DNA of 21,966 bases from a virus (taxonomy: Duplodnaviria > Heunggongvirae > Uroviricota > Caudoviricetes): the IMG/VR virus record IMGVR_UViG_2609460059_000007, one strand, 5' to 3'. A program made the translations under genes and the position numbers. Below are positions 1-21,387 of this stretch, in pieces. How positions within the stretch are numbered: the first letter of the stretch is position 1; every line of letters begins with the position of its first letter. The notes below the pieces were generated by a model. It was not told the origin of the DNA. It worked only from the letters and a program-made list of their open reading frames with translations, and searched no databases.

Positions 1-1275
1 ATGGCCATTAATGTGCTTTCCCCCAAACAGATAGAAAACGCCAAGCCGAAGACCAATGATTACAAACTTACCGATGGAGGGAGTTTGTATCTACTGGTAC
101 GAAAGACTGGTGGAAAATACTGGCGTATGAATTATCGTTTTGATGGAAAACAAGTGACATTGGCATTAGGGGTCTACCCAGATGTCTCACTTGCAACAGC
201 GCGGAAACGGCGTGATGAAGCCAGGCAACTACTAGCCGATGGTCGTGATCCTCGCGAAGCAAAGAAACCCAAAAAGGAAGACCCAATTTCCCCCACGTTC
301 GAGAGTGTTGCCAGAGAGTGGCATAGTGGAACGATGGGGCATCCTGAGTGGAAAGAGATCACCCGTAAAAAAATTCTCCGAGAAATGGAAAACCACCTCT
401 TTCCTGCCATCGGTTCAAAGCCTATCGATACGCTCAAAACCCGTGACTTGATGCCGATGCTGGTTGAGATGACTGAGAAAGGAATTGGTGCCACAACGAG
501 CCGTGTAAAAACCACTATGACGAGCATCTTCCGTTATGCCGTGCAACGTGGAATTGTCGATTACAACCCTGCCCACGATCTAAAAGGTGCAATTACGGCC
601 CCCAAAGTACGACATCGCCCCGCACTACCTCTCGAACGTTTACCTGAACTGTTAGCGAAAACGAGAAGTTACACGGGAAGACCATTGACTCGCCTAGCAG
701 TTCTCTTTTCCCTGCACACTTTTGTGCGATCCAGCGAACTACGACATGCCAGATGGGAGGAGATCGACATTGAAAATGGGCTATGGACGATACCAGGACA
801 ACGTGAAGAGATCGCAGGGGTTAAATTCTCAGATCGGGGTGCAAAGATGGGGGCTGCTCATTATGTCCCGCTATCTAGTCAGGCTATCGGGGTACTGGAG
901 GATATAAGGAAAATCAGTGGTGAATATCTGCTGGTTTTTCCCGGTGACAGCAACCCATATAAACCGATGAGCGAAAACACAGTTAATAAAGCACTGCGAA
1001 CGATGGGTTACGACACTCAAACTGATGTTTGCTTGCATGGGTTCAGGGCGATGGCCTGCTCTGCACTGACCGAATCAGGACTCTGGTCACGCGATGCAGT
1101 TGAACGGCAGATGAGTCACCAAGAAAGAAACGAAGTGCGGGCAGCATATGTGCATCTTGCGCAGCACATGCAGGAACGCCGCAGAATGATGCAATGGTGG
1201 TCTAATTATCTGGAACTAAATAAGGACGAATTCCATGCTCCTTATGACTTATCAGGTATTAACATTATCAATTAA
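1..1275 (+). CDS. int: P4-type tyrosine integrase (site-specific recombinase)
   Basis: 424-aa ORF; N-terminal region (YKLTDGGSLYLLV, KYWRMNYRFDGKQ) typical of P4/CP4-57-type integrase DNA-binding domain; C-terminal part with HGFRAM and conserved His/Arg/Tyr-containing region of tyrosine recombinases. Recognised from memory, no search run. Confidence 0.9.
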   Translation: MAINVLSPKQIENAKPKTNDYKLTDGGSLYLLVRKTGGKYWRMNYRFDGKQVTLALGVYPDVSLATARKRRDEARQLLADGRDPREAKKPKKEDPISPTFESVAREWHSGTMGHPEWKEITRKKILREMENHLFPAIGSKPIDTLKTRDLMPMLVEMTEKGIGATTSRVKTTMTSIFRYAVQRGIVDYNPAHDLKGAITAPKVRHRPALPLERLPELLAKTRSYTGRPLTRLAVLFSLHTFVRSSELRHARWEEIDIENGLWTIPGQREEIAGVKFSDRGAKMGAAHYVPLSSQAIGVLEDIRKISGEYLLVFPGDSNPYKPMSENTVNKALRTMGYDTQTDVCLHGFRAMACSALTESGLWSRDAVERQMSHQERNEVRAAYVHLAQHMQERRRMMQWWSNYLELNKDEFHAPYDLSGINIIN

Positions 1276-1305
1276 ATACTCTTATAATTTAAAACAGAGG
1301 TCATA

Positions 1306-2187
1306 ATGCAGCATTCAACAGAGAATGAAACTATATTCTTAGGAAATCTATGGATTGACAAAAAAATACCACCATTAGAATATTGTTCATTTGAACGCGC
1401 TTCAAGACTATTAGAATGCGAGATTGATGATTTATTACATCTATACGAAATAGGCGCTTTTAATATCGCATTCAAGGCGGATGGACTTGCAGTTAGATTT
1501 AATGTTAATTTCCTCAATAAAAATCAGAAAATGGAAATTGACTTAATTCATCCCGTATTAACTAATCAATCACTAGAGATGGAATTTTCAACAATATGGT
1601 ATGACCTTAAAGATGATTCCTTTGAACATTTTGAAAATGGGCTTCAAATTATAGGATTTGCCTGTGGTATTTGGTACGCCGATGATATGATAAGTGACAT
1701 AAAAAATGGATTAGCTATAGATCCAGATTATGAATTCAGGCTTAAACCGGTAAAAATACGAGATAATGTTTTGATGGCAACGGCCTCATATGAAGGAAAT
1801 AAGGTCATTGAGATTCCATTTGAAGATCTTCTTATCATGCGAAGAGATTTAGAGTTAATATGGAAATCAGTAAAAACTGGAATTCCTATGCCAAGTTTAC
1901 TTACGAAAAGAATTTCATCTGAACCTAAAATCCCCAAGCGATTAAATAACACTGCTGAGCATCATGCAAAAAATAGGGAGGGGTTATTAAATGCAGCCAT
2001 ATATATATTAGCAAAATACCCAAGCGAATGTCGTGGTGAAAGAAAAGAGATAAGTCCTGAAAAGTGGACTAACGCCATAATTAAACATTTAGGAGAGCTA
2101 CCTCCAATATTTATCACTAATGAACAAGAAATCTTAAGAAAATTACGATTAGCGGTTAATCATGCGGGATTAAAACAAAAGGGGTAG
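1306..2187 (+). CDS. Hypothetical protein, AT-rich orphan cargo gene between int and alpA
   Basis: 293-aa ORF starting 31 bp after int stop with GAGG Shine-Dalgarno 7 nt upstream; codon usage visibly more AT-rich than flanking int and alpA; no motif I can assign. Confidence 0.6.
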   Translation: MQHSTENETIFLGNLWIDKKIPPLEYCSFERASRLLECEIDDLLHLYEIGAFNIAFKADGLAVRFNVNFLNKNQKMEIDLIHPVLTNQSLEMEFSTIWYDLKDDSFEHFENGLQIIGFACGIWYADDMISDIKNGLAIDPDYEFRLKPVKIRDNVLMATASYEGNKVIEIPFEDLLIMRRDLELIWKSVKTGIPMPSLLTKRISSEPKIPKRLNNTAEHHAKNREGLLNAAIYILAKYPSECRGERKEISPEKWTNAIIKHLGELPPIFITNEQEILRKLRLAVNHAGLKQKG

Positions 2188-2289
2188 ACTGAAACAATCT
2201 ACAGGTAGAGTTGATTACACTACCTTCACAGCATTTTGATATCCCCATAGTATCTGCCGTGTTCATTACATAATACGGCAGGTAATTTC

Positions 2290-2505
2290 ATGACATTAAA
2301 AACTTATCCTATCACTGGACATGCCCGCCCACGAGCTACTGCTGACTTTTTGCAAATAAGTACGGTTACTCTCTGGCGCTGGGAAAAGAACAATCCTGAA
2401 TTTCCCAAATCTATACGCATTTCAAAACGGGTATCTGTTTACGATGCACAAGAAATTAGGCAGTGGGTTAAAGCTCAATCAGCAGGATTGGAGGAAGTAG
2501 TATAA
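2290..2505 (+). CDS. alpA: AlpA-family phage transcriptional regulator (excisionase-like DNA-binding protein)
   Basis: 71-aa ORF with the AlpA-type helix-turn-helix signature (FLQISTVTLWRWEKNNPEFPKSIRISKRVSVY); typical position after int in P4-like elements. Confidence 0.85.
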   Translation: MTLKTYPITGHARPRATADFLQISTVTLWRWEKNNPEFPKSIRISKRVSVYDAQEIRQWVKAQSAGLEEVV

Positions 2506-2554
2506 TGACAATATTAACAAAGCTGGGGAGAAAAAAGCCTCCCCAACGTATTAA

Positions 2555-2749
2555 TCAATTCTTTGGTTCTAAACCTCGGCTTTGTAACTCTTTGCGTAGA
2601 ATGCGCTTGATCCAAGCCGCTAGCGATTCATCGCCATCCTGCTGTTGTGCTTGTTCCATCAGTTCACGCAGTTCAGGGTCAAGTCGGAACTGGAATGGCG
2701 GATTCCCACGTCTTTCATTTTTGTGTGTTGACACGTCAATTACACCCAT
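2555..2749 (-). CDS. Arc/MetJ-type ribbon-helix-helix DNA-binding protein, putative satellite repressor
   Basis: 64-aa ORF with beta-strand/helix/helix pattern FQFRLDPELRELMEQAQ...ESLAAWIKRILRKEL characteristic of Arc-like RHH proteins; divergently oriented from the downstream operon, with palindromic operators in the shared intergenic region. Confidence 0.6.
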   Translation of the reverse strand: MGVIDVSTHKNERRGNPPFQFRLDPELRELMEQAQQQDGDESLAAWIKRILRKELQSRGLEPKN

Positions 2750-2783
2750 TGTAATGTATTTATGTGTAATGACACATTACACA
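2728..2783. promoter_or_regulatory. Divergent promoter/operator region with perfect palindrome GTGTAATG-ACA-CATTACAC and related half-sites
   Basis: 21-bp perfect palindrome at 2763-2783; additional CATTGTAATG and TTGAC-AC-GTCAA partial palindromes at 2728-2760; TTGACA at 2728-2733 as possible -35; lies between Arc-like gene start (2749) and Icd-like gene start (2866). Confidence 0.5.
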
Positions 2784-2865
2784 CAGAAAAACAAAATAGC
2801 AACGCCCCGGAGTGTTTGCAGCAGCACCGAGGCGTCTGACCAGCACGTTATATGAGGTAACGAAG

Positions 2866-3042
2866 ATGGCTAAACAGAAGTGTACCTGGTTATTTGCGGC
2901 GATCAACCGCAGTCAACGCAATGCCCGTCCTGTGATGTTAAGGATCACCGCAGATAACGAACGATCAGCGCGGCGCAGACTTGCCCCGGACTATGTACTG
3001 AGCTTTGCCGGGCGCATTCCCTGCGGAGGTGAACATGCGTAA
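2866..3042 (+). CDS. Putative Icd-like host cell division inhibitor (P4 kil/icd positional analog)
   Basis: Internal ATG of listed ORF 2812-3042 preceded by GAGG at 2854-2857; product MAKQKCTWLFAAINRSQRNARPVMLRITADNERSARRRLAPDYVLSFAGRIPCGGEHA resembles, from memory, the Icd-like small proteins of P4-like prophages (L.ITA...ARRRLA...FAGR.P motif). Not verified. Confidence 0.45.
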   Translation: MAKQKCTWLFAAINRSQRNARPVMLRITADNERSARRRLAPDYVLSFAGRIPCGGEHA

Positions 3043-3394
3043 TTATCCGCACCCCGGCGAACGCTGGCAGCATGAACGTGGCTGGACGGTCACGATTATC
3101 CGATTAATAGAAGCCTCGCCCTCTGTGGCGCTGGTTAATCCTGAATTCAGCTGTGAAGTGCTGATACGTCATGACAGCGACAACAAGCTTTCTTCCTGCC
3201 CTCTGGCATGGTTTGAACAGCGGTATACGCGCCTGTTTGATGTACCGCTCTTGAAGCCTGCACCAGCTCCTGCTGGCGGTAGTGGTTCCGGCCCGCTGAC
3301 ACTGCATCCGTCTGTGCTATTTATCCGCTGGCGGGAGCGTAGCATACGGCGTTCTGCTGAGCCTGACGACGGTCACTATTCAAAGTTTCTCTGA
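3035..3394 (+). CDS. Hypothetical satellite protein
   Basis: Internal ATG of listed ORF 3005-3394 with GGAGG at 3025-3029; 8-bp overlap with upstream gene; codon usage consistent with neighbours. Confidence 0.5.
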   Translation: MRNYPHPGERWQHERGWTVTIIRLIEASPSVALVNPEFSCEVLIRHDSDNKLSSCPLAWFEQRYTRLFDVPLLKPAPAPAGGSGSGPLTLHPSVLFIRWRERSIRRSAEPDDGHYSKFL

Positions 3395-3425
3395 CAAAAT
3401 ACCGCTGAAAACGGAGTAATCCACG

Positions 3426-3710
3426 ATGAATATTTCAAACGGGCACAACGGTGCTCAGGGCCACACTTTGCCTGAAAAACACAATACCGGTGCTTTTGCC
3501 TATGGGTTGTCAGAGGACAGTTTCGGAAAGCTGACCCGCGCAAGAAATGCCTGCGACATGCTCCAGCTTCTCTTTTCTGAATACCCGTCTCAGGCCGGAG
3601 CACTGGACGCAGGCTGTGCGCCTGGTGTCGCCGCGCTGATGGAGTACCTGCTGGCAGATTTGACGGATATTGCACACAGCTGCGCACTGATTGAAGGAGG
3701 TGCCAGATGA
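3426..3710 (+). CDS. Hypothetical protein, possible positional analog of P4 epsilon (94 aa)
   Basis: 94-aa ORF; stop overlaps next start (ATGA), suggesting translational coupling into the primase operon; size and position similar to P4 epsilon but no sequence-level recognition. Confidence 0.5.
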   Translation: MNISNGHNGAQGHTLPEKHNTGAFAYGLSEDSFGKLTRARNACDMLQLLFSEYPSQAGALDAGCAPGVAALMEYLLADLTDIAHSCALIEGGAR

Positions 3711-4090
3711 ACCAGCCGCAGGTTTCCATTTTCCCGGTAGAAATGACCACCGCGCTTTACCGGCGGGCTATTGCTTCAGCATGGCGGCAGAAAATGCTGA
3801 ACGAAACTGGCAGTGATCAGTATGGTCCGCACAGCCTGACGGTGGAGCGTATTGAAATGGCCATTGCGCTGCATATCGAGTGCGTACTGATTAACGAGTA
3901 CGGCGAAGTGCAGGGCGCCGCTGCCGCGCTGGCACTGCTGACTGACATGCTGGAGCCGTCACTGCTGACCGCGCCGCCGGTACTGACCGCGCGCGGCTGT
4001 GAAGTGATGGCGGAGATGTACCGCACGCTTCCGGCGGCCTTTGATGACTTCTGCAGTACCGGTGTGACGTTGTATGAGGGGGAAGTATGA
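3707..4090 (+). CDS. Hypothetical protein immediately upstream of primase
   Basis: 127-aa ORF; ATGA overlaps on both sides (3707-3710 and 4087-4090) indicate an operon with the primase. Confidence 0.55.
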   Translation: MNQPQVSIFPVEMTTALYRRAIASAWRQKMLNETGSDQYGPHSLTVERIEMAIALHIECVLINEYGEVQGAAAALALLTDMLEPSLLTAPPVLTARGCEVMAEMYRTLPAAFDDFCSTGVTLYEGEV

Positions 4091-6759
4091 CAATACAGAC
4101 GGTTACGCAGGTTTCAGCCGCCGCACGGGGGAAATGGCCCGTTATTCTGCAGATGCTGCGTATTGATGTACCTGAAAACGGCAGGCACGGTCCCTGCCCG
4201 AAATGTGGGGGCAAGGATCGTTTTCGCCTTGATGACCTTGACGGGCGCGGGACGTGGATCTGCAGCCAGTGTGGCAATGGTGACGGTCTGGATCTGGTTA
4301 AGCTCGTAACCGGTTACAGCGTCAGAAAGGCTGCGCAGGAGGTGGCGCAGATGCTTAATGTGCCGGATATGCAGGAACTGCCTGTTAAGCCTGCCAGACA
4401 AAAAGCCCCTAAACGCGACATGGGTCTTACCGTGGCGGCGCTGATGAAAGAGAGCCACACGGGAGAAAGCGCCTATCTGACAGGAAAAGGGTTCGCCGGA
4501 TACCCGGCCTCTCTGACCGGAAGCGTACAGCATATCAGCGGTAAGGATTTTCCTGCCGGTTCCCTGCTGTTACCACTCACGACCAACACCGGAGCCGTGA
4601 CCGGTGCACAGCTTATCGCCCCGACGGGTGAAAAAAGCATACTGCCCGGCAGCACGATGAAAGGCGCGTTTGTGTCGCTCAGCCCGTTACCGTCTGAACC
4701 ACCGATACAGGTGGTGATTACCGAAGGTTACGCTACGGCGCTGACGGTAAGCCAGCTCACTGCCGGATGCGTAGTGGCTGCCATATCTGCGGGCAACCTG
4801 CCCAATGTGGCGCAGTCGCTGCGGGCACGCTGGCCTGAGGTAAAAATTATCATCGCCGGTGATAACGATTTTCAGGACGGGGGTGAGAATCCCGGCAGAG
4901 CCTTTGCTGAACGGGCGGCAAAAGCTGTTGGCGGCTGGATGACGCTGCCACCAGGAGAGATTAAGGCTGACTGGAATGACTTTCATCGGGAGCACGGTAT
5001 TACCCGTGCCCGTGAAGCCTTTCGCAACGGTCTGGTACTCTGCGGGGAAAGCCGCACGCAACTGCCGCACGGGTTCCGTCTTACCCAGGAATATCTCTGG
5101 TATGAAAAGCAGGTACAGCGCAACGGTGAGACGGAGATCCAGAACGTCAAAATATGCAGCCCGCTGCGCGTGACGGCAATCACCTGCGATGCCGATGGCG
5201 GTAACTTCGGACGACTGCTGGAATGGGAAGATACGTGGGGTGAGTGTCGCCGCTGGGCGATGCCGATGGAAATGCTGAGCGGCAGTGGTGAGGAACTGCG
5301 CCGGGTACTGCTGGTTAACGGGCTGTCTTATATCAGCACCACCGGTGAGGCACGCGCACGCCTGATGGAATATATCTCACTGTGTAAACCGGAACGCCGC
5401 GTGACCTGCGTCAGTCGTACTGGCTGGCATGGTCAGGTTTACGTCCTGCAGGATGAGGTCAGCGGTGAAGGTGCAGAGGGTGTCATTCTCCAGACCACTT
5501 CCGTGCAGGGGCGTGATTTCCGCGTGTCGGGCACAACAGAGGAATGGCGGGAGCATGTATCCCGCTACTGTACCGGCAACTCCCGCGTGGCATTTGCTGT
5601 CAGCCTGGCCTTTGCTGCACCACTGTTACGGCTGGTTGGTATGGACGGCGGCGGCTACCACCTCAAAGGGGAATCGACAGACGGTAAGACCACCACCATG
5701 AAAGCAGCAACCTCCGTCTGCGGCGGGCCTGACTACTGGCAGACGTGGCGGGCAACCGGCAACGCGCTGGAGGGATGCGCCAGCCGCCGCAACGATGCCG
5801 CCATGATGCTTGATGAGATCCGGGAAGTTGACGGACGCGAGGCAGGCAATATCGCCTACATGCTGGCAAACGGTCAGGGCAAGGGCCGTGCCGGTACGGA
5901 CGGTGAGCTGCGTACCCGTAAGCAGTGGCGCCTGTTGTTCTTTTCAACTGGCGAATTGTCTCTGACCGAACATGCGGCAAAGGCCGGTGAGCGTACTTTT
6001 GCCGGGATGGAAGTCAGGATGATCCAGATCCCCAGCGATTCCGGGAAGTTTGGCGTTTTTGAGGAGCTGCACGGCTTCGACAGCGGCAAGGCTCTGGCAG
6101 AGCATCTTGAATGGGCCACGTCCTGCTACTACGGTTCGCCGTTCCGGGAGTGGCTGAAAGCACTGACCGCTGATCTTAACGGACTAACGGCACAGGCAAA
6201 ATCGCTGATGAAGGAATATGCTGCCGCCCTGACTCCGAAAGATGCAGGCAATCAGGTGGGCCGGGCTGTGAACCGCTTTGCACTGGTGGCGATGGCAGGT
6301 GAACTGGCAACCCGTCTGGGTATCACCGGCTGGCCTGAGGGTGAAGCACTGCGGGCAACCCGCGTCTGCCTGAACGCATGGCTGAAAGATCGCGGGCACA
6401 CCGCCAATCAGGAAGATATCGCCGCACTGGAGCAGGTTCGCAGTTTCTTTACCGCGAATCAGTACAGCCGCTTTGCAGACTGGTATGACGAGCGCAACCG
6501 CCCCGGCAATATGGTGGGCTGGCGAAGGGTGGAGAAAGGCAGTACCGCGCAGGGCACGGAAGCTGTCACTACGTTCTATGTCATGCCGTCCGGCTGGAAA
6601 GAAATCTGCAGGGGATTTGACCCGCGCAAGGTGGCGCGTCTGTGCGCAGATCGTGGATACCTGCTGCCCTCCACTGATGGCAAACTCCAGACAACCATTC
6701 GCCCGCCAGAGATGAATCCCCGCAGGCTCTATGTCTTCAACAGCGAGGTGCCGGGTTAA
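4087..6759 (+). CDS. P4 alpha-like primase/helicase (zinc-binding primase domain + TOPRIM-like region + P-loop NTPase)
   Basis: 890-aa ORF; N-terminal CPKCGG...CSQCG zinc-binding motif typical of P4-type primases; Walker A-like GESTDGKTT around residue 525; large size and position before iterons match the P4 alpha replication protein. Confidence 0.9.
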   Translation: MTIQTVTQVSAAARGKWPVILQMLRIDVPENGRHGPCPKCGGKDRFRLDDLDGRGTWICSQCGNGDGLDLVKLVTGYSVRKAAQEVAQMLNVPDMQELPVKPARQKAPKRDMGLTVAALMKESHTGESAYLTGKGFAGYPASLTGSVQHISGKDFPAGSLLLPLTTNTGAVTGAQLIAPTGEKSILPGSTMKGAFVSLSPLPSEPPIQVVITEGYATALTVSQLTAGCVVAAISAGNLPNVAQSLRARWPEVKIIIAGDNDFQDGGENPGRAFAERAAKAVGGWMTLPPGEIKADWNDFHREHGITRAREAFRNGLVLCGESRTQLPHGFRLTQEYLWYEKQVQRNGETEIQNVKICSPLRVTAITCDADGGNFGRLLEWEDTWGECRRWAMPMEMLSGSGEELRRVLLVNGLSYISTTGEARARLMEYISLCKPERRVTCVSRTGWHGQVYVLQDEVSGEGAEGVILQTTSVQGRDFRVSGTTEEWREHVSRYCTGNSRVAFAVSLAFAAPLLRLVGMDGGGYHLKGESTDGKTTTMKAATSVCGGPDYWQTWRATGNALEGCASRRNDAAMMLDEIREVDGREAGNIAYMLANGQGKGRAGTDGELRTRKQWRLLFFSTGELSLTEHAAKAGERTFAGMEVRMIQIPSDSGKFGVFEELHGFDSGKALAEHLEWATSCYYGSPFREWLKALTADLNGLTAQAKSLMKEYAAALTPKDAGNQVGRAVNRFALVAMAGELATRLGITGWPEGEALRATRVCLNAWLKDRGHTANQEDIAALEQVRSFFTANQYSRFADWYDERNRPGNMVGWRRVEKGSTAQGTEAVTTFYVMPSGWKEICRGFDPRKVARLCADRGYLLPSTDGKLQTTIRPPEMNPRRLYVFNSEVPG

Positions 6760-6792
6760 GGCTTTGCGTGAGTCTTATTTATTAAGGGTAAC

Positions 6793-6981
6793 AGGTGAAA
6801 CGGGTGGAACAACCGTATTTTACAGGGCTGAACCTGTTCCACCTTCTGAAATAGTGAGGTGGAACAGATGTAACGCCAGCCAATCCGCTGTTCCACCTTG
6901 TTACCCGCGATGTTCCACCGGTGCAGTGTATATAAATGCCTTATAAAACAAAGCTGTAACACATGTTTCACCTGTTCCACC
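6793..6981. repeat. Iteron cluster: six perfect copies of TGTTCCACC/GGTGGAACA plus two variants, in both orientations; putative alpha-binding replication element (P4 ori/crr-like)
   Basis: Perfect 9-mers at 6803-6811, 6835-6843, 6858-6866, 6889-6897, 6911-6919, 6973-6981; variants GGTGAAAC (6794-6801) and TGTTTCACC (6964-6972); AT-rich stretch tatataaatgccttataaaa at 6929-6950. P4 ori and crr carry TGTTCACC octamer iterons bound by alpha. Confidence 0.65.
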
Positions 6982-7069
6982 GCATCAGGGACATAAAGCA
7001 GACTGAAACAGAGGGCATTTTTATCTGGCTGGCTTTCATAGCCACGTCTGAATAACCGCAAGCGCCCGT

Positions 7070-7125
7070 TGTGCCAGCCACCACACACTGAGCACCGATA
7101 GTGTGCTTGTGTCAGCCACGACACA
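7070..7125 (+). promoter_or_regulatory. Candidate Ogr/Delta-dependent late promoter upstream of sid-like gene: two TGT-N12-ACA dyads
   Basis: TGT(7070-7072)-N12-ACA(7085-7087) and TGT(7108-7110)-N12-ACA(7123-7125); P2/P4 late promoters carry a TGT-N12-ACA element centred near -55; the first dyad is about 80 bp upstream of the ATG at 7160. Confidence 0.4.
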
Positions 7126-7159
7126 ATTGACGTAACGAACCAACCCGACAGGAGAAGTC

Positions 7160-7903
7160 ATGAACAATACCGCAGTAAATAACAACCTTTCCACTTTTCC
7201 GGCTGTAACGCAGCGGGCACTGGAAACCATGAACACAGCCAGAAACGCATGGCTTGAAGCACGTCGTCAGCAGAAAGCGGCAGCGGATAATATTGCGACA
7301 ATCCGCCAGCGTCGCGCTGAAATGGAAGCCACGACGAACACACTGAATGAGGAGTGGCGCACGCTGTTTCGTGAAAGTCAGGGCGTGGTCTCAAAGGAAA
7401 TGAAAAAACTGCGCACGGAAATTGCGCTGGGACGAGAAACGCTTGAGGATTTTGATGAGCTGCTGGCGGCTCAGGAAAGCGAAAATGCACTTTTGCCGCA
7501 GAAAGCTGCAGAATTAGCCGGAAAGTATATCCACGCGCATAACATTCTTGTGGATATTCGCGCAAAACAAATCTGGGAGGATTTTATGCAGTCGCATGGA
7601 AAAGCGCTTATTCAGACGCTGAGCCTGCTTAAATCCACAATGGGCCGGGAAGCCAGTGCCGTTGTGGGTGTGGTGAATTCAGTTAATGACCCGGACACAG
7701 TGCTGAAAGACTTTATTCATAAACATATCACCAGACCGGCTCTGGCTAACGATGCGATGCCTGAGCAGGACCCGGTGTTTAAACTGGCGGGAGTTGCCCC
7801 GGATTATGCGGCGCGTCTGGATTTCAGTAATCAACTCTCTCCGGCAGCTATGCATAAAATTAAGGTTCGTCAGGAACTCGCTGAGAAGGAGAAAGCAGTA
7901 TGA
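7160..7903 (+). CDS. sid: Sid-like capsid size-determination protein (Psu/Sid family)
   Basis: 247-aa ORF with AGGAG Shine-Dalgarno; N-terminal region (RALETMNTARNAWLEARRQQ) and internal FMQSHGKALIQ resemble the Psu/Sid family; first gene of the late module as in P4. Sid versus Psu-paralog assignment is not certain. Confidence 0.6.
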   Translation: MNNTAVNNNLSTFPAVTQRALETMNTARNAWLEARRQQKAAADNIATIRQRRAEMEATTNTLNEEWRTLFRESQGVVSKEMKKLRTEIALGRETLEDFDELLAAQESENALLPQKAAELAGKYIHAHNILVDIRAKQIWEDFMQSHGKALIQTLSLLKSTMGREASAVVGVVNSVNDPDTVLKDFIHKHITRPALANDAMPEQDPVFKLAGVAPDYAARLDFSNQLSPAAMHKIKVRQELAEKEKAV

Positions 7904-8451
7904 CGGCCCGAGGCACGCCTGACCAGGCACTTACCAGTTTTCGGAATGCCCGTATTCTGTGGGCCGGACATAGTGAGAGCCGAAAAGCCGTTGAACAACA
8001 GATAACATCTCTCCTCGCTGCCACAGAAAAACCAGCAGATTATGCCCGACAGCTCGAATTACTGCGGGAACGTCTGGATGTGCTGAAATGGCAAATTAAC
8101 TGTGCTGCGCGCGAATGCATTTACGCGCAGCATTTACTGATGGAGGCCTGCACAGAAGCCGCTCTCAGCAATTTTATGCAGGCGAATGGGGCAGCCCTGA
8201 CATCTGCACTGGCTCCGTTCCTGAAGGGGCGCGGAGGGGTTGACGTTGCGTCCCGTATATTACGCAGTGCTCTGGTTCGCCAGCTGGCAATAACACCGCC
8301 TGAAATTGCCGGGGATTATCGTGAGATCCTGGATGAATCCGGTTTGATACCTGACCCCGGGATGATTCGTGATTGCCAGGACTCTTACACCCCGGCACAA
8401 CATCTGCATTTTCAGCAACGCCTGAATGACATTAACGATATACAGGAGTGA
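7900..8451 (+). CDS. psu: Psu-like polarity suppression protein
   Basis: 183-aa ORF; segments VLKWQINCAARECIYAQHLL, FMQANGAALTSALAPFL and YTPAQHLHF align with my recollection of P4 Psu; start overlaps upstream stop (ATGA). Confidence 0.7.
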   Translation: MTARGTPDQALTSFRNARILWAGHSESRKAVEQQITSLLAATEKPADYARQLELLRERLDVLKWQINCAARECIYAQHLLMEACTEAALSNFMQANGAALTSALAPFLKGRGGVDVASRILRSALVRQLAITPPEIAGDYREILDESGLIPDPGMIRDCQDSYTPAQHLHFQQRLNDINDIQE

Positions 8452-8456
8452 TTTTA

Positions 8457-8729
8457 ATGGCACTTAAATGTCCGGAATGCGGTACAGTTGCACACGCCAG
8501 AACAGCAGCCTATGAAGCTCCGTCAGTTAAACGCTCGTGGTATCAGTGCCAGAATCTGGAATGTTCCTGCACATTTACGGCACTGGAGAGTGTGGATAAG
8601 ATAATCATGAAACCCCGGCGCAATGAACAGGAACCAGACAAATCACCCCCCCCGGTAAAACAACAGCAAACGCTCAATCGCTATGGCTCCGCGTCAAAAC
8701 TGTCAAGCCGTCAGCAGATTCCTGTCTGA
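8457..8729 (+). CDS. ogr: Ogr/Delta-family zinc-finger late transcription activator
   Basis: Product MALKCPECGTVAHARTAAYEAPSVKRSWYQCQNLECSCTFTALESVDKIIMKP matches the P2 Ogr pattern CPxC...AHART...YxCQNxxCSxTF...ESVxxxIxKP; I prefer the ATG at 8457 (AGGAG 9 nt upstream) over the GTG at 8448 used in the ORF track. Confidence 0.85.
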   Translation: MALKCPECGTVAHARTAAYEAPSVKRSWYQCQNLECSCTFTALESVDKIIMKPRRNEQEPDKSPPPVKQQQTLNRYGSASKLSSRQQIPV

Positions 8730-8749
8730 TTAGAAAAAACGCCCACGTA

Positions 8750-8775
8750 ATCCCGGTCGAGTACCGGGATTTTTA
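8750..8775 (+). terminator. Rho-independent terminator after the late module
   Basis: Stem ATCCCGGT (8750-8757) / ACCGGGAT (8763-8770) with 5-nt loop, followed by TTTTT. Confidence 0.7.
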
Positions 8776-8924
8776 ACACCTTTTCCCTGGCTGGCCTGAG
8801 AGCGCATGAGTGCATGTCTATAGCGCATGAAAACGCATGAACCTTATGCACCATTTTTGACGAGAAAGCCCTTGTGTGGTGGCTTCTGAGACGATTTATG
8901 AGGTGCATGAAAACCAGTCTGTTA

Positions 8925-8955
8925 AGCGAAGCGGGCAGGCGTGCGGGGCTGTTCG
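8925..8955. other. Candidate cos region (GC-rich patch resembling P2/186-type cohesive end)
   Basis: GGCGTGCGGGGCT at 8938-8950 resembles the P2-family cohesive-end core GGCGAGGCGGGG / GGCGTGGCGGGG as I recall it; it lies after the psu-delta module where P4 has cos. Imperfect match; not verified. Confidence 0.3.
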
Positions 8956-9147
8956 CATCAACATAAAAATAACGGGCTGATATAGTTATAAAATCAAATG
9001 AACTCTTTTAGTACGACATGGGTATGTGCGCCAGTAGCAACGTCAGCCCCCAAGCTTTCTATTGTTCTTTTCTGTTGTACCATCAATACGTACCGATTAG
9101 CTCCTAAGCATCAATATCAGTTTGAACGTATTGCTTTGAACTAATTT

Positions 9148-9186
9148 TTAGATGATTTTTTTCATTAAAAAATTATAATGTTGTAG
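9148..9186 (+). promoter_or_regulatory. Candidate sigma70 promoter for the cargo operon
   Basis: Perfect -10 hexamer TATAAT at 9174-9179, weak -35 (TTAGAT, 9148-9153), in an AT-rich leader 35 bp upstream of the ATG at 9214. Confidence 0.4.
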
Positions 9187-9213
9187 ATAAAAAGAGAATC
9201 TTATAGAGGCGTT

Positions 9214-10062
9214 ATGTCAAATAAAGTTGATGTTTTTTTGAGCCGAGTTAGCCATGTATCACAGTTTGTATTGGTGGCATTTGCTATTTTTGGATATTTT
9301 TATACAGTAAGACCAATTTACCAAAAGGAACTTTTATCAGAAGAAATTGCAAAAAAAGAAGTTGAATTAAATAAATTAAAAACTGCAATGGAAAACTCCC
9401 AAAAATTTATAGAGAATAATAAAATCTTACGAAAAGAATTGGAGGGAAGCATTGCCAAACTTGATTTACAATACAAAGAATCAGAAGAAAAATTAAATTC
9501 AATAAATTCTGAACTAAGAAAAACTTTAAATGAACTAAATAAACAAAAGACCATTGCCAAAAGAGCGGTCAATGCAAACAACAAGAATCTTGAATCTGTT
9601 TTCTGGGAGAATTTTTCGGGGCTAGTTGGAGTAGTTTATATTTCTAAGAGCACAGATTTTGTGAACAATACACTGGGTGACGCCAAAACAGCCTATAATA
9701 CTCCTAGTAATTTATATATATCTCCTTATGATGCAATTAATGAAGCATTAAAAAATGGCAATCATAACTTTATCTCAAGTTCAGAAAATGTCCCTGAAAA
9801 TATCCGCAACAAAATTCTAGCAAAGATCCGTCGCGCTATTGAAAAAAATAAGATTTCATTAACAAAAAAACCTATCGGTTTTGATGAAAAAATTAATAGT
9901 CTGATAAAAACTATAGAGTCAACTAAGTTACGCAAAAATGAAAACGAAATAATGAAAAATAACACTGCAGAAAGAGAACTATCATCTTATATTTTCCTGA
10001 TAAATGGTCAATCAAGAATCCGCGCCATGGATTTCTTAAAAGACATTCAACATTTAGACTAA
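9214..10062 (+). CDS. Hypothetical membrane-anchored coiled-coil protein (cargo gene A of satellite hotspot)
   Basis: 282-aa ORF, strongly AT-rich; AGAGG Shine-Dalgarno; short N-terminal tail, one hydrophobic helix (VSQFVLVAFAIFGYFYTV), then a K/E-rich heptad-like region; no recognisable catalytic motif. Confidence 0.7.
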   Translation: MSNKVDVFLSRVSHVSQFVLVAFAIFGYFYTVRPIYQKELLSEEIAKKEVELNKLKTAMENSQKFIENNKILRKELEGSIAKLDLQYKESEEKLNSINSELRKTLNELNKQKTIAKRAVNANNKNLESVFWENFSGLVGVVYISKSTDFVNNTLGDAKTAYNTPSNLYISPYDAINEALKNGNHNFISSSENVPENIRNKILAKIRRAIEKNKISLTKKPIGFDEKINSLIKTIESTKLRKNENEIMKNNTAERELSSYIFLINGQSRIRAMDFLKDIQHLD

Positions 10063-10078
10063 TATTGGATATCTTATA

Positions 10079-10783
10079 ATGAATACTAATACTAAATTTG
10101 ATTTATGGTTGATTAGAGTAAGTTACATTGCCCAAGTTGGATTGTTTTTTTTGACAACCTTTACAATATTTTACACAGTAATTCCGATATACCAAAATGC
10201 AAATCTGCAGGAATCAATAGCAAAAAAAGAAATCGAATATAAACAATTACAAGACAAAGAAAAAACTCTATATTTAAAGTTAAGAAAGGAATATTCAAGA
10301 AAATATGTTGTTGATGCAATCTCCCAATGTTCTCCAACAGAAATACTTATGCGTCAACCATCTGAAGATGACAGTAAAAAATCACATGATGTAAGAATGA
10401 AGGAATTAAAAACATTTTTAAACAAAGATATAACCAGTTGCTTTGAAAAAACTTTTTATAGCAACCCTTACATTAAGGAATTAAGAGACACTGATCAACA
10501 AAATATTCTTCTTAAAATTAAAAATTTATCCCCCTCTATAACTAAACTACATGAAAAATATAAAGCAGAATTTGATGACGATAGCAAGTTATTGAATACT
10601 GGAAAAGAAAAATCGACAAGATTAAAAGAGGTGGAAGATTATTTAATAGGAATAGGAGGTTACACAGAAAACAGCAAAAAGGATTTTGAAAACTCATACA
10701 TAGAATCTGGAGCATATGACTTGGTTGTAAGGTATGGTTTTGAAGTCAACGATCTATTTTCCAAAACCATCAGAGACAATTAA
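10079..10783 (+). CDS. Hypothetical membrane-anchored protein, N-terminal paralog of cargo gene A (cargo gene B)
   Basis: 234-aa ORF 16 bp after gene A; N-terminus (IRVSYIAQVGLFFLTTFTIFYTVIPIYQNANLQESIAKKEIEYKQL) parallels gene A (SRVSHVSQFVLVAFAIFGYFYTVRPIYQKELLSEEIAKKEVELNKL) at protein and DNA level; C-terminal halves unrelated. Confidence 0.7.
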   Translation: MNTNTKFDLWLIRVSYIAQVGLFFLTTFTIFYTVIPIYQNANLQESIAKKEIEYKQLQDKEKTLYLKLRKEYSRKYVVDAISQCSPTEILMRQPSEDDSKKSHDVRMKELKTFLNKDITSCFEKTFYSNPYIKELRDTDQQNILLKIKNLSPSITKLHEKYKAEFDDDSKLLNTGKEKSTRLKEVEDYLIGIGGYTENSKKDFENSYIESGAYDLVVRYGFEVNDLFSKTIRDN

Positions 10784-10795
10784 TTAGGTGAACAA

Positions 10796-10823
10796 CCTCC
10801 TCTATTTTAATTAATAGAGGAGG
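10796..10823. terminator. 28-bp perfect palindrome (hairpin), probable terminator of the cargo operon
   Basis: CCTCCTCTATT-TTAATT-AATAGAGGAGG starting 13 bp after the gene B stop; no strong T-tract follows, so intrinsic-terminator assignment is tentative. Confidence 0.5.
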
Positions 10824-11392
10824 TGCTTAAATTATAAAAACATTTCAGGTTTGATTTAGATAACACGCAAATAAAAAACAAACTAATGAAATATATAAAT
10901 TAATTCTTAGGTATAAAATGTTACAATTAGAATATATTTAATTTTTAACTTTAAATCATGATAAATCTAAAAGTAAGCCCCCAAAAAACCTTCAAAACAC
11001 AATACGTCGTGTCTCAACCCCATGATATTTAGGGTTAAACCAAGTTATAGCGCTGACTGGTGAGCGGTTTGAAGTCATTCTGGTATACATAAAATGAAAA
11101 AATACATTGGGAGATATACCCCTGACTTACAGAGCTGGTAACGGTTACCAAGTCGCATTGTGTAATGCGTGGGGTGTAAAATTTTTTGGGTATTTTTTAT
11201 CCAGTAGCAGGTTAGCCCGCCCCCCCTGCTCCTAACGTTCTTTCATTCCTCTTTTCATCATTTTTAGAACGATATAAACAGATGGATCTCTATGGTTTTA
11301 ATGAGTCGATTTTATCGTCTGATGGTATCCATGATGGTACCTAAGAGAGAAAATAAAAAATAATACTTAAAAAACATGAAATTATAAATACT

Positions 11393-11415
11393 TTCGATTC
11401 CTGCAGGGGACACCA
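11393..11415 (+). other. attR-like direct repeat: 23-bp 3-prime end of a tRNA (T-loop through CCA), matching tRNA-Arg(CCU)/argW from memory
   Basis: TTCGATTCCTGCAGGGGACACCA contains the T-loop consensus TTCGATT, the 3-prime T-stem strand, acceptor strand and terminal CCA, but the 5-prime two thirds of a tRNA are absent (upstream is AT-rich non-tRNA sequence). Confidence 0.7.
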
Positions 11416-11852
11416 TCTATCATCCCCCTCGCAATAACCCACTTACAATCAGTGAGTTATCTTAAAATCCTTAGTATAGTCAACCAGTACTTCGATATGT
11501 GAACGCAAATCATCATGCATTCGTGAACTTAACTGGAAACCTCCCCCATTCGATGTCAAAATGACTACCCCAATAAGTTGCCAATAATCAGGCTAATCAA
11601 TACGGGTCAGTCTTGCTGGTCAGTGACCATAAAAATGTCACCTCATATTAGACACAGCAAATAATTGTGTCGATTAAACATACTACCTTCAGCATAACCG
11701 TTCCTGAAAAATTATTATATTCAGTAATCTGAATAAATTACTGGCCTGCTATTTTTCTTAGCAACCATATTTAGCAGCAAGCCAGCAAATCTGAATGATT
11801 ACAGATGCTGGCCTGCTGAATCTCCCTTCTGGAAATCGTCAGAATCTAGTGA

Positions 11853-12383
11853 TTACTTACTTTGTTCTGGTTTCTCTTCATTCTTATTGTGCACTTCCAC
11901 TTTGGGTAACTGATTAAAAACCAGATTTTCTTTTTCAACCAGAGCCATGACTTCTTTGGTGATATCAGCTGACTCGTTATGCGCAAGCACAACACCTGAA
12001 GACAATACAGCAATATTTTTAGGATTGTCTTTTCTCCATGTACCTATGGCATTATCTATCGCACGGGATAACACCATTTTTGCGCTATTTTCCTCAATAA
12101 CATATTGTCGCTCCAGTTTTTGTCTGGCATCAAGAAGCAGCGCCTCTTTATTCGCGTTATCTGCGAATGCTTTTTGCGCATCCTCATAGCCTTTTTCAAG
12201 AATACTCTTAACCTCATTCAGATGCTTTCTGACCATGTCTCCGGCGGCAGACTGATTATAAATAGCATCGATATTAACAACTGCAATTTCTTTTGACTTT
12301 TTCATATAAAAAACACCAGTAAGTACAATCAGCAACAGCAGCACTACTGCATTAACAACAGAAAATTTCATTACAGAACTCAT
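11853..12383 (-). CDS. Skp/OmpH-family periplasmic chaperone-like protein
   Basis: 176-aa ORF; hydrophobic N-terminal signal/anchor then IAVVNIDAIYNQ and C-terminal VLSSGVVLAHNESADITKEVMALV, paralleling E. coli Skp (IAIVNMGSLF...[25 protein letters not shown]) from memory. Confidence 0.65.
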   Translation of the reverse strand: MSSVMKFSVVNAVVLLLLIVLTGVFYMKKSKEIAVVNIDAIYNQSAAGDMVRKHLNEVKSILEKGYEDAQKAFADNANKEALLLDARQKLERQYVIEENSAKMVLSRAIDNAIGTWRKDNPKNIAVLSSGVVLAHNESADITKEVMALVEKENLVFNQLPKVEVHNKNEEKPEQSK

Positions 12384-12430: not shown

Positions 12431-15400
12431 TTAGAATATATATTTAATACCCAGCATTGCCTGGGCATCACTGTACCCTTTATCGCCAGCCTGAACACCA
12501 ACATTGCCCCAGACATTCAGGTTATCTGACAATTTACCCTGAACACCCGTTTTGACTTCAGCAATATTTGTAGCTCCGTCCTGACTGAGTGCCGTATTAT
12601 CCATTTTGACACCCCAGCTCCGTGTATTATGGATCCAGTTAACTTCCACAAATGGCTCAAACTGATGCGCCTTATTATCATCAGACGCACTCTTACCTTT
12701 CAGGTAAGTTCTGACGCCCAGACGACTCTGGATATTACCGTCTCCGCTGAGCTGAACTTTCGTGCCATTCTTCTCCGTATGCTCACTGGCTCTTACATTC
12801 ATCCACGTGATCTGGGACTGCGGCTGAATATACCAGTCATAGTGACTACCCTGGCTACCGGTAAATTCGCCGGCTTTAAAGGTATAACCCGCTTCCACTG
12901 AACCGGTAAATCCACGGGATTTCCAGGACTCCGCAGCCAGTTTTTCACCATTAACGGTATTATTAAACCATCCGTACTGGATCCAGGTATCGACATAAGC
13001 CCCGTTGTCATTACCGTCATTCTGCTGCCACGTTCCGTATAAACCGGTGCTGTATCCATTGATCGCACCTTTAGATTTATATCCCGAAAGCGAGGATGTC
13101 GTGGAACTCTTCTCATTTCCATAACCGGCCATAATCCCCAGTTGCAGACGGTCCTGACCGTCAGTCCATTGCGCAATGCTGCCACCCAGTTGCACAACAT
13201 AACGGTTACTTTGCGTATTCAGCTGTGAACTGCTGTCCTTCCAGCGATTATGACCGCCGATATGACGCATCCACATACTTGTTGCTTTCTTCTCACCAGT
13301 AAACACATCGGTATAGTAAGTTTCCCCCTCACGATCGTGCATTCTGATGTTGAACAGCGTGTTGGCTGCCGCTATGTTCGCAATATAAGAGCCCGCTTCC
13401 GGACGATAGACCTTCTGTACAGGTTTATCCGGCGTGGGGTGTGGCTGTGGCTGCGGTTGTGGCTGCGGCTGCGGTTGTGGCTGCGGCTGCGGTTGTGGCT
13501 GCGGTTGTGGTTCTGGCGGCAATTCAGAACGCAGATACCAGTTACCGTCAGTACCACCCGCATTACCTTTATGCAGGAAATATTCCCACGCCCCTGCCAC
13601 CGCACGGTTCTGCAGTCTGAAGTTACCGTCAGACTGCCCACCGACATGCACAATCTCAATGCCGTCAGCGGTCTGAGCCCCCTGGCCCCGGACATTATTC
13701 ACCACCACGCCGGTATCACCGGAGGTGTTACCCGTGACAATCAGTTTGTCAGTGGTAGAAGTATCATCCCCCAGCACGGTATTGATAATTAACGTACCGC
13801 CACCGGTGTAATCGCCATTTACGGTCAGGGTATTTCCTGTCTTACCACCGGCCAGACGAATGACGCCGGTATTGGTCAGTGAGCCAACGGTAAAATTGCC
13901 CACCTCTGCCGTTTCATAACCTGAGAGAGCATTCAGTGATGCCAGTGTTCCCTGGTTATTAACCTGACCCGAAACGGTCCCCAGCCCACTCAGTGTGCCG
14001 CCATTAAGAACATGAATGTTTTTGGATCCTGACAACGTCGCGCCAGCGGCACGGGTGACTGAATCATCACCGACAATCAGAACGCCACTCTCAACCGTGG
14101 TATCACCGGTATAAGTCAGCTCATGATTAATGATCAGATTACCCGCCCCCTGTTTCACCAGAGCGCCGGAGCCAGTAATATCATTCTTCAGTAACCAGTT
14201 TCCACTGGCGGTAAGCCAGGTGACACCATCACTGTCAATCAGCCCGGTGCCCAGGTGTTTTTCATCTGAAGCCCGCAGAGCAGCATCTTTCTGCACACGG
14301 AATTCACCGCTGAAATTACTGTTATCCCCGGAAAGCGTCAGATCAGTGGTGTTCAGTATACCCACTGAACCTTCTCCGGAAAGCGATTTACTCAGGTTAC
14401 TGCTGACTCCGCTACCGTCGGCGATATCAATCGCCAGGCGATCATTAAGGCTTTCAAAGCTGATGGAGCCCTGGCTTCCCAGCCCCTGTGCGCCGTTCAT
14501 TTCAACCAGCGCCCCCTGGGTAAGGCTGGCATTACCGGTAAACCCGATATTGGTGCCATGTACCGTCAGATTGCTGCCCGTGACAGCCAGCGTTCCCTCA
14601 CCGGACAGCACGTTGTTTTCAATGATGCCACCATTATCATCCCCCGGCTGACGCTGCGTGCCGCTGACCGTTAGTACACTACCGCTATCAAGCTGAATGT
14701 GCGCTCCCGTTTCTGTCTGCAGTGCACCGACAGTCTGGCTGTATCCGTTTGTTCTGAAGACGGCATTGCTGGCGACGTTCAGATTACCTGTTGCGCCAAG
14801 TACATTATCATTTGCCATCTGTAATGTGCCGCTGCGCACCAGCGTATCCCCGGTGTAGTTATTACCGCCGTTAGACAGTGTGACAACCTGCCCCGCAGCT
14901 TCGATGGCCAGATCCCCTGCCCCCGTTAACTGTGCGCCAAGATCTGTCTGCAGTCCCTGGGCATTCGCTCTCGGTGTCAGCACCAGCGCTTTATCACCGG
15001 TTCCCTGTAAATCCAGCGACTTCAGCCCATAGCCTATGTACAGTCCGTCACCTTTAATACCGTCGGAGCTTCCCAGCAGCTTATAGTCATAATTTCCCTG
15101 AGCTACAACTTCACCGCCCTGAGTGACATCAAACGTCTGACTGTGAGAAATAGCCTGCCCGTTTTCATCCACCAGTTGCAGTTGCCCGCCAGTACCGGTG
15201 ACGGTACCCGCTGCATTCACCAGCGTGACCAGGGTCTGCGCATCATCCTGCTCCAGCAAATTCTTACGGGTATCAACAGCCGGAATATCATTAATCACTT
15301 CATCTGGCATGGTGACCTGAATTGTGCCTTTCCCCCGGATATCCAGCGTACCTGCAGCAGAGGTTTCAATACTGTTGCTGGCAATGGTATCGCCCGGCAT

Positions 15401-20398: not shown

Positions 20399-21019
20399 TT
20401 ATAATTGAATATTTTCACTAATAAGGGAACACGGAATATTTATAAATTGATGTAAACGTTTTACCCCGAGTTTATCCATAGCTCTACGACGATGCGTCCA
20501 CACAGTCTTACTGGATATACCCAAGGTGTTCGAGATCCATGCAATATCTTTTCCTTCCTTGGTATATATAAAGATACTTTTCTCCCTCGGGGATAATTGT
20601 CGTTCTAAAAAAGAAACTTTATGATTCGCGCGAATATTTTTTTTGCACCTCCAGCCATTGATAAATTTATCTATATAGAAACAAAATTGCTCTGCTGTTA
20701 ATTTCCACGGTATGAAAGGTATGCCTTTATTACTAACTACACCATTATCCCCCCATGCCAGGCACGGAATATTGACAGGCTGGCTTTTTAGCCATTGGTG
20801 AATGAAATACAGTGAGCGTATACAGGTAGTAGAATCATTATCAGGGAATACAGGTAACAACAACGATTGCTCATCCCGAAAGCAAGATGTGCCAAAATCA
20901 CGAATCAGAGAAGAATAGTCGTCCACAGCGATGACTTTCACGTACGAAAAACCCCGCCAACGCATACTCTTAATTGCTTGAATTATAAAAGTATTTTTTG
21001 TAGTCGTAATCAAAACCAT
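20399..21019 (-). CDS. LuxR/GerE-family helix-turn-helix transcriptional regulator
   Basis: 206-aa ORF; C-terminal LSPREKSIFIYTKEGKDIAWISNTLGISSKTVWTHRRRAMDKLGV is a LuxR-type HTH; sits 24 bp upstream of the autotransporter start, so likely co-transcribed. Position and type resemble ipuR/hyxR (from memory). Confidence 0.8.
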   Translation of the reverse strand: MVLITTTKNTFIIQAIKSMRWRGFSYVKVIAVDDYSSLIRDFGTSCFRDEQSLLLPVFPDNDSTTCIRSLYFIHQWLKSQPVNIPCLAWGDNGVVSNKGIPFIPWKLTAEQFCFYIDKFINGWRCKKNIRANHKVSFLERQLSPREKSIFIYTKEGKDIAWISNTLGISSKTVWTHRRRAMDKLGVKRLHQFINIPCSLISENIQL

Positions 21020-21112: not shown

Positions 21113-21387
21113 CATTTTGACAACATCAATTTAATTAACTACAAATAGCACAAAACGCAGGTAAAAAACCTGCGTATTTATTTTAATTCAGAATATAATT
21201 TTGATTGTTATTTACATTTTGGCTTTATACGCCAGAGATTAAAAAGAAGACAAACCTACCTCTTTATGTGTAGATTGACGCCGCACATTGATCTAAATCA
21301 GTAAATTTAATGTTTTTTATAGAAAAAAATGTTTTTCTATACGAGAATTTCTAAACAAAGATTGGGTTTACATTTTGGGTCAAAATG
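21113..21387. promoter_or_regulatory. Candidate invertible phase-variation switch flanked by 9-bp inverted repeats CATTTTGAC / GTCAAAATG
   Basis: CATTTTGAC at 21113-21121 and its reverse complement GTCAAAATG at 21379-21387, 257 bp apart; both embedded in local palindromes (CAAAATG-ACC-CATTTTG and CATTTTG-GGT-CAAAATG) each preceded by GGTTTAC; right repeat lies inside the last 14 codons of the recombinase gene. Confidence 0.45.
21155..21182. terminator. Hairpin with flanking T/A runs inside the putative switch (possible bidirectional terminator)
   Basis: Stem ACGCAGGT (21155-21162) / ACCTGCGT (21167-21174), 4-nt A loop, followed by ATTTATTTT on the plus strand and preceded by an A-rich run (T-rich on the minus strand). 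Confidence 0.5.

Follow-up and report, generated by a model that had tools for sequence, protein, structure and literature searches.

The DNA under study (hereafter the window) is a stretch of 21,966 nucleotides (nt) held as IMG/VR virus record IMGVR_UViG_2609460059_000007, the left half of which (positions 1-11415) had been described in an earlier note, from its letters and open reading frames (ORFs), as an apparently complete satellite of the phage P4 type. The whole window was found to be Escherichia coli chromosome, 99.93% identical over 21,966 nt to strain CH4811 (the nearest genome), the few differences between the two being mostly homopolymer indels in the CH4811 assembly. The genes within 1-11415 are co-directional (+ strand), with one small divergent gene among them, and this part of the window, adjoining the tRNA gene argW, is the subject of the present analysis.

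Gene content of the satellite

The features recognised in the element are the following (lengths of proteins in amino acids, aa; GC, guanine plus cytosine):

1-1275, + strand: P4-type tyrosine integrase (424 aa) whose N-terminus carries an arm-DNA-binding domain (Pfam, blastp)
1306-2187, + strand: orf293, a low-GC (~36%) accessory gene between int and alpA (GC profile)
2290-2505, + strand: AlpA/Vis-type helix-turn-helix protein, candidate excisionase or regulator (Pfam, PHROG)
2555-2749, - strand: YlcI/YnfO-like small protein, 64 aa, divergent, candidate repressor (RefSeq annotation in carriers)
2764-2782: perfect 8-3-8 palindrome GTGTAATG-ACA-CATTACAC, candidate operator (read from the sequence)
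2866-3042, + strand: Icd-like host cell-division inhibitor ORF, 58 aa (NCBIfam phage_ICD_like, 5.5e-24)
3035-3394 (119 aa) and 3426-3710 (94 aa), + strand: two conserved small ORFs at the sites where P4 has epsilon and orf151
3707-4090, + strand: DUF5375 protein, homologue of P4 orf106 (Pfam DUF5375 3e-13; 40% identity to P4 orf106)
4087-6759, + strand: alpha-like primase-helicase, 890 aa, with zinc ribbon, Toprim and DUF927 helicase domain (Pfam)
6803-6981, both orientations: iteron cluster, putative origin (equivalent of P4 ori/crr), six exact copies of TGTTCCACC and one near copy
7070-7087 and 7108-7125, + strand: two TGT-N12-ACA boxes alike at 17/19 positions, putative Ogr/Delta-activated sid promoter
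7160-7903, + strand: Sid-like capsid size-determination protein, 247 aa (phrog_6165, 8.7e-93)
7900-8451, + strand: Psu, polarity suppression/capsid decoration protein, 183 aa (Pfam Psu, 3.2e-44)
8457-8729, + strand: Delta, single-copy Ogr/Delta zinc-finger late-gene activator, 90 aa (Pfam Ogr_Delta, 6.9e-16)
8809-8956, + strand: cos region, with block A at 8809-8840 (GCATGA repeats) and block B at 8903-8956
9214-10062 (282 aa) and 10079-10783 (234 aa), + strand: cargo pair in the cos-adjacent hotspot, GC ~30%
11318-11338, + strand: two arm-type integrase sites TGATGGTAY in the arm adjoining attR, conserved in a diverged sister element
11393-11413, + strand: attR core of 21 bp, an exact repeat of the argW 3' part

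P4-like satellites have been defined by seven core markers, for which layout statistics are also available (PMC8628076, PMC10085698), and we used the set of de Sousa and Rocha / SatelliteFinder (Int, Psu, Delta, Sid, AlpA, epsilon/Ash and alpha) as our reference. Alignment to P4, which the earlier note had proposed, returned homologous Int, Sid, Psu and Delta proteins, the primase part of alpha, orf106 and the icd-like ORF. The integrase (Pfam Arm-DNA-bind_3 4.6e-27, Phage_int_M 9e-24, Phage_integrase 2.3e-18) aligns with P4 Int over 409 aa at 52% identity (E 1e-155) and constitutes the P4-like integrase marker, while the AlpA marker is represented by a protein with a Pfam Phage_AlpA match of 1.6e-7 (31.6 bits, cut-off 21), whose PHROG matches lie in both excisionase and transcriptional-regulator families. 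The markers of helper exploitation are likewise recognisable: Sid is 24% identical to P4 Sid over 226 aa (blastp E ~1e-11; 1.4e-11), and DNA 92% identical to the gene is annotated in the O157 Sakai element Sp2 as a capsid size determining protein; Psu aligns with P4 Psu over the full length at 29% identity (blastp 1.8e-14); and Delta matches the first half of P4 Delta at 45% identity (blastp 8e-10). The alpha-like protein (Pfam DUF927 2e-90, Zn_Ribbon_Prim 1e-16, Toprim_3 9e-14) resembles P4 alpha only in residues 5-322, that is, in the zinc ribbon/Toprim portion (38% identity, E 8e-48), and the Icd-like ORF shows 54% identity to the C-terminal portion of the old P4 ‘cI ORF’. All exact TGTTCCACC copies in the window fall within 6803-6981, directly after alpha, and their P4 counterparts, the type-1 iterons (TGTTCACC), are arranged in two clusters. 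A box comparable to those preceding sid (TGTGTCAGGGCTGGCACA) occupies the equivalent place in P4 Psid.

The cos region was located by homology, as the literal P2/P4 cohesive-end 19-mer was not found with up to 3 mismatches; the cohesive-end sequence therefore differs. Since block B lines up with the end of P4 (...AAGCGGGCG / GGCGAGGCGGGG, the solidus marking the P4 end), the cohesive end can be placed, by this alignment, at the 19-mer GGCGTGCGGGGCTGTTCGC (8938-8956). Both blocks are common to a genuine P2-like prophage, phage 500465-1 and Sakai Sp2, and in the P2-like prophage they sit between gpA/hotspot and portal. The cos patch is conserved at 90% or more in ~850 of 5,426 E. coli genomes. 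Homology to other satellites ends at 8949-8957, exactly where the cargo begins, in keeping with the published observation that in P4-like satellites the accessory hotspot adjoins cos (PMC9122126). The block alignments thus reveal the hallmark combination of a cos shared with P2-like helpers and an adjoining accessory hotspot.

Attachment sites and the empty site at argW

The 23-bp tRNA-Arg-like 3' fragment, which the earlier note had taken for the right end of the element, is present exactly as described: the 23-mer TTCGATTCCTGCAGGGGACACCA at 11393-11415 is the exact native 3' end of E. coli argW (tRNA-Arg CCU). No tRNA gene was detected within the window (ARAGORN). The note had proposed to look for an intact tRNA-Arg gene upstream of the integrase, and in the near-identical CH4811 an intact tRNA-Arg(CCT) argW indeed ends 187 nt upstream of the integrase ATG (window position 1); a tRNA gene therefore precedes the integrase in that genome, and the 23-mer is the native 3' end of that tRNA, so that neither of the findings named in the note as refuting was encountered. 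The repeat proper is the 21-nt core (single occurrence in the window, 0 expected by chance), beyond which the attL copy (CH4811) continues with TTTAAAG and the window with CA. These two nucleotides (11414-11415) complete the native tRNA end and are chromosomal; their inclusion in the repeat was considered and ruled out, as attL reads ...GACACTTT.

We rebuilt the empty site by joining the yfdC-argW flank to the window from 11414 onward and searched for it in all complete E. coli genomes. CFT073, Nissle 1917, ABU 83972 and ATCC 25922, among others, contain it without a mismatch over 800 nt (100% identity), and 186 genomes show coverage of 80% or more. As the junction is found intact in other strains, the insertion is precise and the right-hand DNA normally follows argW there; the alternative that the whole argW-to-upaE stretch forms one island was ruled out, since in the empty site the upaE flank follows immediately upon argW. 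In six other carrier genomes the match to the element ends at 11415-11417, so that empty site and carriers agree on the tRNA fragment as the right end. On the left, the proposed boundary at the integrase start did not hold: it is an artefact of where the window begins, and the true left end lies 186 bp further upstream. The distance between att cores is consequently 186 + 11,413 = 11,599 bp (P4, 11,624 bp), which agrees with the size hallmark of P4-like satellites (~10-12 kb, fitting a small capsid).

Arm sites of the integrase were located as well. Six TGATGGTAY motifs were counted at the CH4811 locus (0.49 expected), with three arm-type sites between the attL core and int (in the left 186 bp outside the window) and two next to attR; sites on both sides of the core are the arrangement expected for an integrase with an arm-binding domain. 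Taken together, the att cores, the empty site, the size and the gene content indicate that window positions 1-11413, with the 186 bp upstream of the window, very probably represent a P4-family satellite of 11.6 kb that is integrated in E. coli argW and appears to be intact.

Some side observations concern the attachment cores. The argW gene rebuilt at attL (L001 11742-11820, CH4811, and L011 4741-4813; compare window 11393-11415) reads ...GGGGACAC followed by TTTAAAG, and the native argW ends in ACACCA. Because the satellite core stops 2 nt short of the tRNA end, the terminal CCA is no longer encoded by the attL copy of argW, and lysogens would, judging from this reading of the junction, depend on CCA addition for the rebuilt tRNA. 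Relative to the window, CH4811 carries a shift from A7 to A6 at ~9350, which splits cargo gene 1, and one from G4 to G3 at 11406-11409, inside the attR core; the sister element of strain 025542-1 likewise has G3 in its attR core. Such homopolymer shifts may be assembly errors or real attR decay.

To the right of the tRNA fragment, the window contains the following genes:

11853-12383, - strand: OmpH-like gene
12431-20374, - strand: UpaE autotransporter, 2,647 aa (phase-variable according to RefSeq)
20399-21019, - strand: helix-turn-helix regulator
21337-21966, - strand: ipuA invertase

The assertion that this DNA is unrelated to the element was borne out, as the OmpH-like gene, UpaE and ipuA adjoin argW in strains without the element. 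In RefSeq the genes next to upaE are annotated as the invertases ipuA and ipuB, and the argW-dsd region has been described as highly variable (PMC3032704).

Cargo, regulation and mobility

Downstream of cos the GC content drops to ~30% (9000-11000), and the two cargo genes found there are preceded by a promoter-like site (directly after cos) and followed by a hairpin (past the second gene). Each encodes a protein with one N-terminal hydrophobic helix and an all-helical domain behind it; the two N-termini are 49% identical and share the motif (R/I)PIYQ...IAKKE, and the second protein possesses two invariant cysteines, which may belong to a periplasmic domain. The AlphaFold2 models of both reached a pLDDT (predicted local distance difference test) of ~88, and their fold matches were generic helical bundles only, hence uninformative; a weak SMC match in the searches with the cargo and orf293 reflects coiled-coil composition. 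None of the cargo proteins or orf293 matched any PADLOC defence model, and searches of literature and supplements for their RefSeq accessions returned none. Both cargo families are small and restricted to Enterobacterales, within which Enterobacter and Cronobacter conserve the pair downstream of an Ogr_Delta gene; the two genes are kept together downstream of delta/cos in Escherichia, Salmonella, Enterobacter and Cronobacter. The slot that the pair occupies is one in which P4-like satellites usually house anti-phage systems, and in a sister satellite it is filled by retron St85. Given that 6/8 randomly chosen unknown loci from P4 hotspots protected against phages (PMC13586616), an anti-phage role of the cargo is plausible, and we speculate that the pair would most likely act at the inner membrane against competing phages. 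It is a serious possibility, although one to which we grant somewhat less than even chances, that the cargo constitutes an undescribed two-component, inner-membrane-anchored anti-phage/superinfection-exclusion system that moves exclusively with P4-like satellites, in their hotspot next to cos. We consider this pair the only part of the element that could repay experiments.

The other low-GC gene, orf293, found no match in Pfam, PHROG, NCBIfam or PADLOC, and its homologues amount to 14 clusters only, all of them Enterobacterales hypotheticals. Its position is held by different genes in sister satellites, which suggests that the gap between int and alpA is a second, smaller variable slot beside the integrase.

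The modules that the earlier note had enumerated (integrase, AlpA, primase-helicase with iterons, sid-psu-delta, cos and cargo) were all found and are uninterrupted, but its statement that every module of a P4-type satellite is present went too far, and the observations behind this correction, together with a few others, weigh against the reading of the element as an intact P4-family satellite. The helicase half of alpha is DUF927, not the D5_N/Pox_D5 of P4-type alpha. Among the ORFs from alpA to alpha no epsilon/Ash homologue was detected (Pfam Phage_ASH; blastp against P4 epsilon), so that derepression of the helper prophage may be missing or may be performed by an unrecognised protein. RNA of the CI/C4/IsrK type was not found in the window, as Rfam, run over its whole length at gathering score and over 2200-3500 at E up to 10, returned chance-level matches only (traJ_5, RybB, algC); the alignment of the leader to the P4 cI region gave nothing convincing beyond the icd ORF, and the folding of the leader is not exceptional (z -1.05). 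The regulatory design of P4 sensu stricto (a CI RNA with seqA/seqC targets and divergent PLE/Psid operons) was accordingly not encountered, the operons being co-directional. Repressor and operator are assigned here by position and weak similarity, and the late promoter by the position and pairing of its boxes, because the bare TGT-N12-ACA motif occurs in the window at chance frequency (7 found, 6.4 expected). Lastly, the cargo has no domain, family or fold recognisable by PADLOC, Pfam, NCBIfam, PHROGs or structure comparison.

In place of a P4-type CI RNA, lysogenic control is probably exerted, to judge from the layout of the region, by the YlcI-like protein at the 2764-2782 palindrome. This protein has a weak NCBIfam YlcI_YnfO_N match (3e-4, under the family cut-off), a terminator-like hairpin (2547-2522) stands directly past its stop codon, and face-to-face promoter-like sites (+ strand 2769-2797, - strand 2775-2748) flank the palindrome. 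The segment 2583-2871 (YlcI-like gene, palindrome and icd leader) is 78-85% identical to segments in unrelated contexts (on an E. coli plasmid of 97.8 kb, at other chromosomal sites and in a Klebsiella phage record of 106 kb), and it seems to be a small regulatory cassette common to different mobile elements. Further downstream, the 119-aa and 94-aa ORFs match phrog_30862 and phrog_14861 (PHROGs without assigned function) and are kept in 22/22 co-linear relatives examined.

Two other explanations have to be weighed against these data. The absence of detectable epsilon/Ash and P4-type immunity RNA could mean that the element is a cryptic, immobile remnant, complete in appearance, no longer inducible or packaged, and persisting as a cargo-carrying island. 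Degraded relatives do exist (int, delta and cargo only in Cronobacter; a delta and cargo stub beside another satellite in Enterobacter), and in one sister element the attR core has lost 1 nt. However, all recognised genes are full length and agree in length with the homologues that other carriers possess, the window and the proxy attL each have a perfect att core, with arm sites kept on both sides, cos is highly conserved, the size is held at 11.6 kb, and near-identical copies reside in different chromosomal contexts. Moreover, one missing marker defines an accepted class (‘Type B’) of P4-like satellites, and epsilon-less variants are recognised as possibly functional (PMC8628076, PMC10085698). 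We thus regard decay to immobility as unlikely.

Far less credible still, and in our view close to excluded, is a phage-inducible chromosomal island (PICI) that acquired P4 genes and uses a non-P2 helper and another packaging route. Its starting point is that the co-directional int, accessory gene, alpA and primase-helicase of the left half follow the layout of Gram-negative PICIs, which are helper-dependent satellites as well, and not that of P4 (PMC10085698). Against it, no PICI-type packaging or redirection gene (small terminase, Ppi/Rpp, capsid morphogenesis) was seen among the ORFs of the element (Pfam, PHROG); what distinguishes it from such islands is the presence of sid, psu, delta, Ogr/Delta boxes and a P2-type cos, all specific to the exploitation of P2, and its integrase, DUF5375 and icd genes are P4 homologues.

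We therefore return to the intact P4-family satellite. The same element is present at 99.6-99.9% identity in seven complete genomes, and in at least one carrier genome both flanks differ (a lambdoid prophage on the left, csc genes on the right); such near-identical copies in different contexts are, as far as genome comparison goes, evidence of recent mobility. From the cos mimicry, the size, the intact genes and these identical copies we infer, on good grounds, that a P2-like helper would be able to mobilise it. On the pattern of what is known of P4 and P2, Int and the AlpA/Vis-like protein would excise the element by recombination between the cores, and the primase-helicase would replicate the resulting circle from the TGTTCCACC iterons. 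Helper Ogr or satellite Delta would activate the promoter with the TGT-N12-ACA boxes; Sid would force the helper capsid protein into small shells holding ~11-12 kb, Psu would decorate the shell and block Rho, and Delta would turn on the helper late genes. The helper terminase would finally cut and package the satellite at its look-alike cos.

Relatives and comparison with known systems

The layout census was carried out on IMG/VR loci carrying this Sid, which are mostly prophage predictions from isolate genomes (uninformative on packaged ends and used for layout only). The co-linear layout was found in 22 of the 29 loci, the other 7 being canonical with a P4-type alpha. About half of the co-linear relatives have delta directly after sid, with psu not detected (a psu-less sub-lineage). 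The icd-orf119-orf94-alpha block of the co-linear relatives is at least 86% identical and their integrase identity ranges from 37% to 100%, a pattern that points to a swap of the integration module at about window 2826-2846. The element is, in sum, a P4-like satellite of a co-linear, DUF927-alpha, epsilon-less lineage, of a kind already well catalogued: it adds one more to the thousands of P4-like satellites known in Enterobacterales. Its value is modest: with att core, arm sites, cos and empty site known exactly, excision and transduction can be tested directly; a common co-linear lineage is documented (DUF927 helicase, no detectable epsilon or CI RNA, a likely protein repressor); and the element carries an uncharacterised membrane-protein pair in a slot where 6/8 unknown loci were protective (PMC13586616). 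Furthermore, the published rule for extracting P4 hotspots looks for an integrase within ten genes downstream of psu (PMC9122126); as the integrase of co-linear satellites stands at the opposite end, the rule would not capture their cargo. Applied to this window, it could pick up the ipuA invertase instead.

In comparison with P4 (NC_001609), the element belongs to the same size class, has a P4-type integrase directed to a tRNA 3' end with arm repeats flanking the core, and encodes the homologous proteins described above (at identities from 24% for Sid to 54% for the icd-like ORF). Its iteron logic is near-identical (TGTTCCACC here, TGTTCACC in P4), TGT-N12-ACA boxes precede sid, and the sid operon is followed by a P2-type cos with a hotspot adjoining it. 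At the DNA level only short stretches of int, alpha and psu resemble P4, and blastn of the backbone against a phage collection gave only a 68-nt match near 2793-2861. It differs from P4 as follows: P4 targets leuX (this element argW), and its alpha and sid operons are divergent, int standing next to the hotspot, whereas here all modules are co-directional (int, alpA...alpha, sid-psu-delta, cos, cargo, att). The order is sid-psu-delta instead of sid-delta-psu (the P4 gene order being found in 77% of complete elements and the psu/delta swap in 20%; PMC8628076), Delta is a single-copy protein of 90 aa (166 aa in P4), and there is one iteron cluster in place of ori plus crr. The helicase domain of alpha is a different one, as noted above, neither epsilon nor CI RNA is detectable, and a divergent YlcI-like gene stands at the place expected of a protein repressor.

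The usual occupants of argW, prophages of the KplE1/CPS-53 type, are unrelated elements whose junction shares only 13 nt (CTGCAGGGGACAC) with the 21-nt core of the satellite. Sakai Sp2 (the ‘P4-like phage’ of E. coli O157:H7) has a sid-psu-delta-cos block with 92% DNA identity to ours and variable cargo after cos, but is otherwise built on the canonical P4 layout, in which alpha (777 aa, P4-type) is encoded on the other strand and the integrase lies past the hotspot; hence the helper-exploitation module has been exchanged between two backbones that do not share replication and regulation. Co-linear sister satellites, such as the one at leuX in E. coli AR435 (the carrier of retron St85), have the same layout, and their icd-to-cos block (window 2826-8951) is about 98.7% identical to that of this element. 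They differ in the int-accessory-alpA-YlcI module and the tRNA target, and the cargo slot, which co-linear sister satellites have at the same place as this element, is occupied in AR435 by a known defence system.

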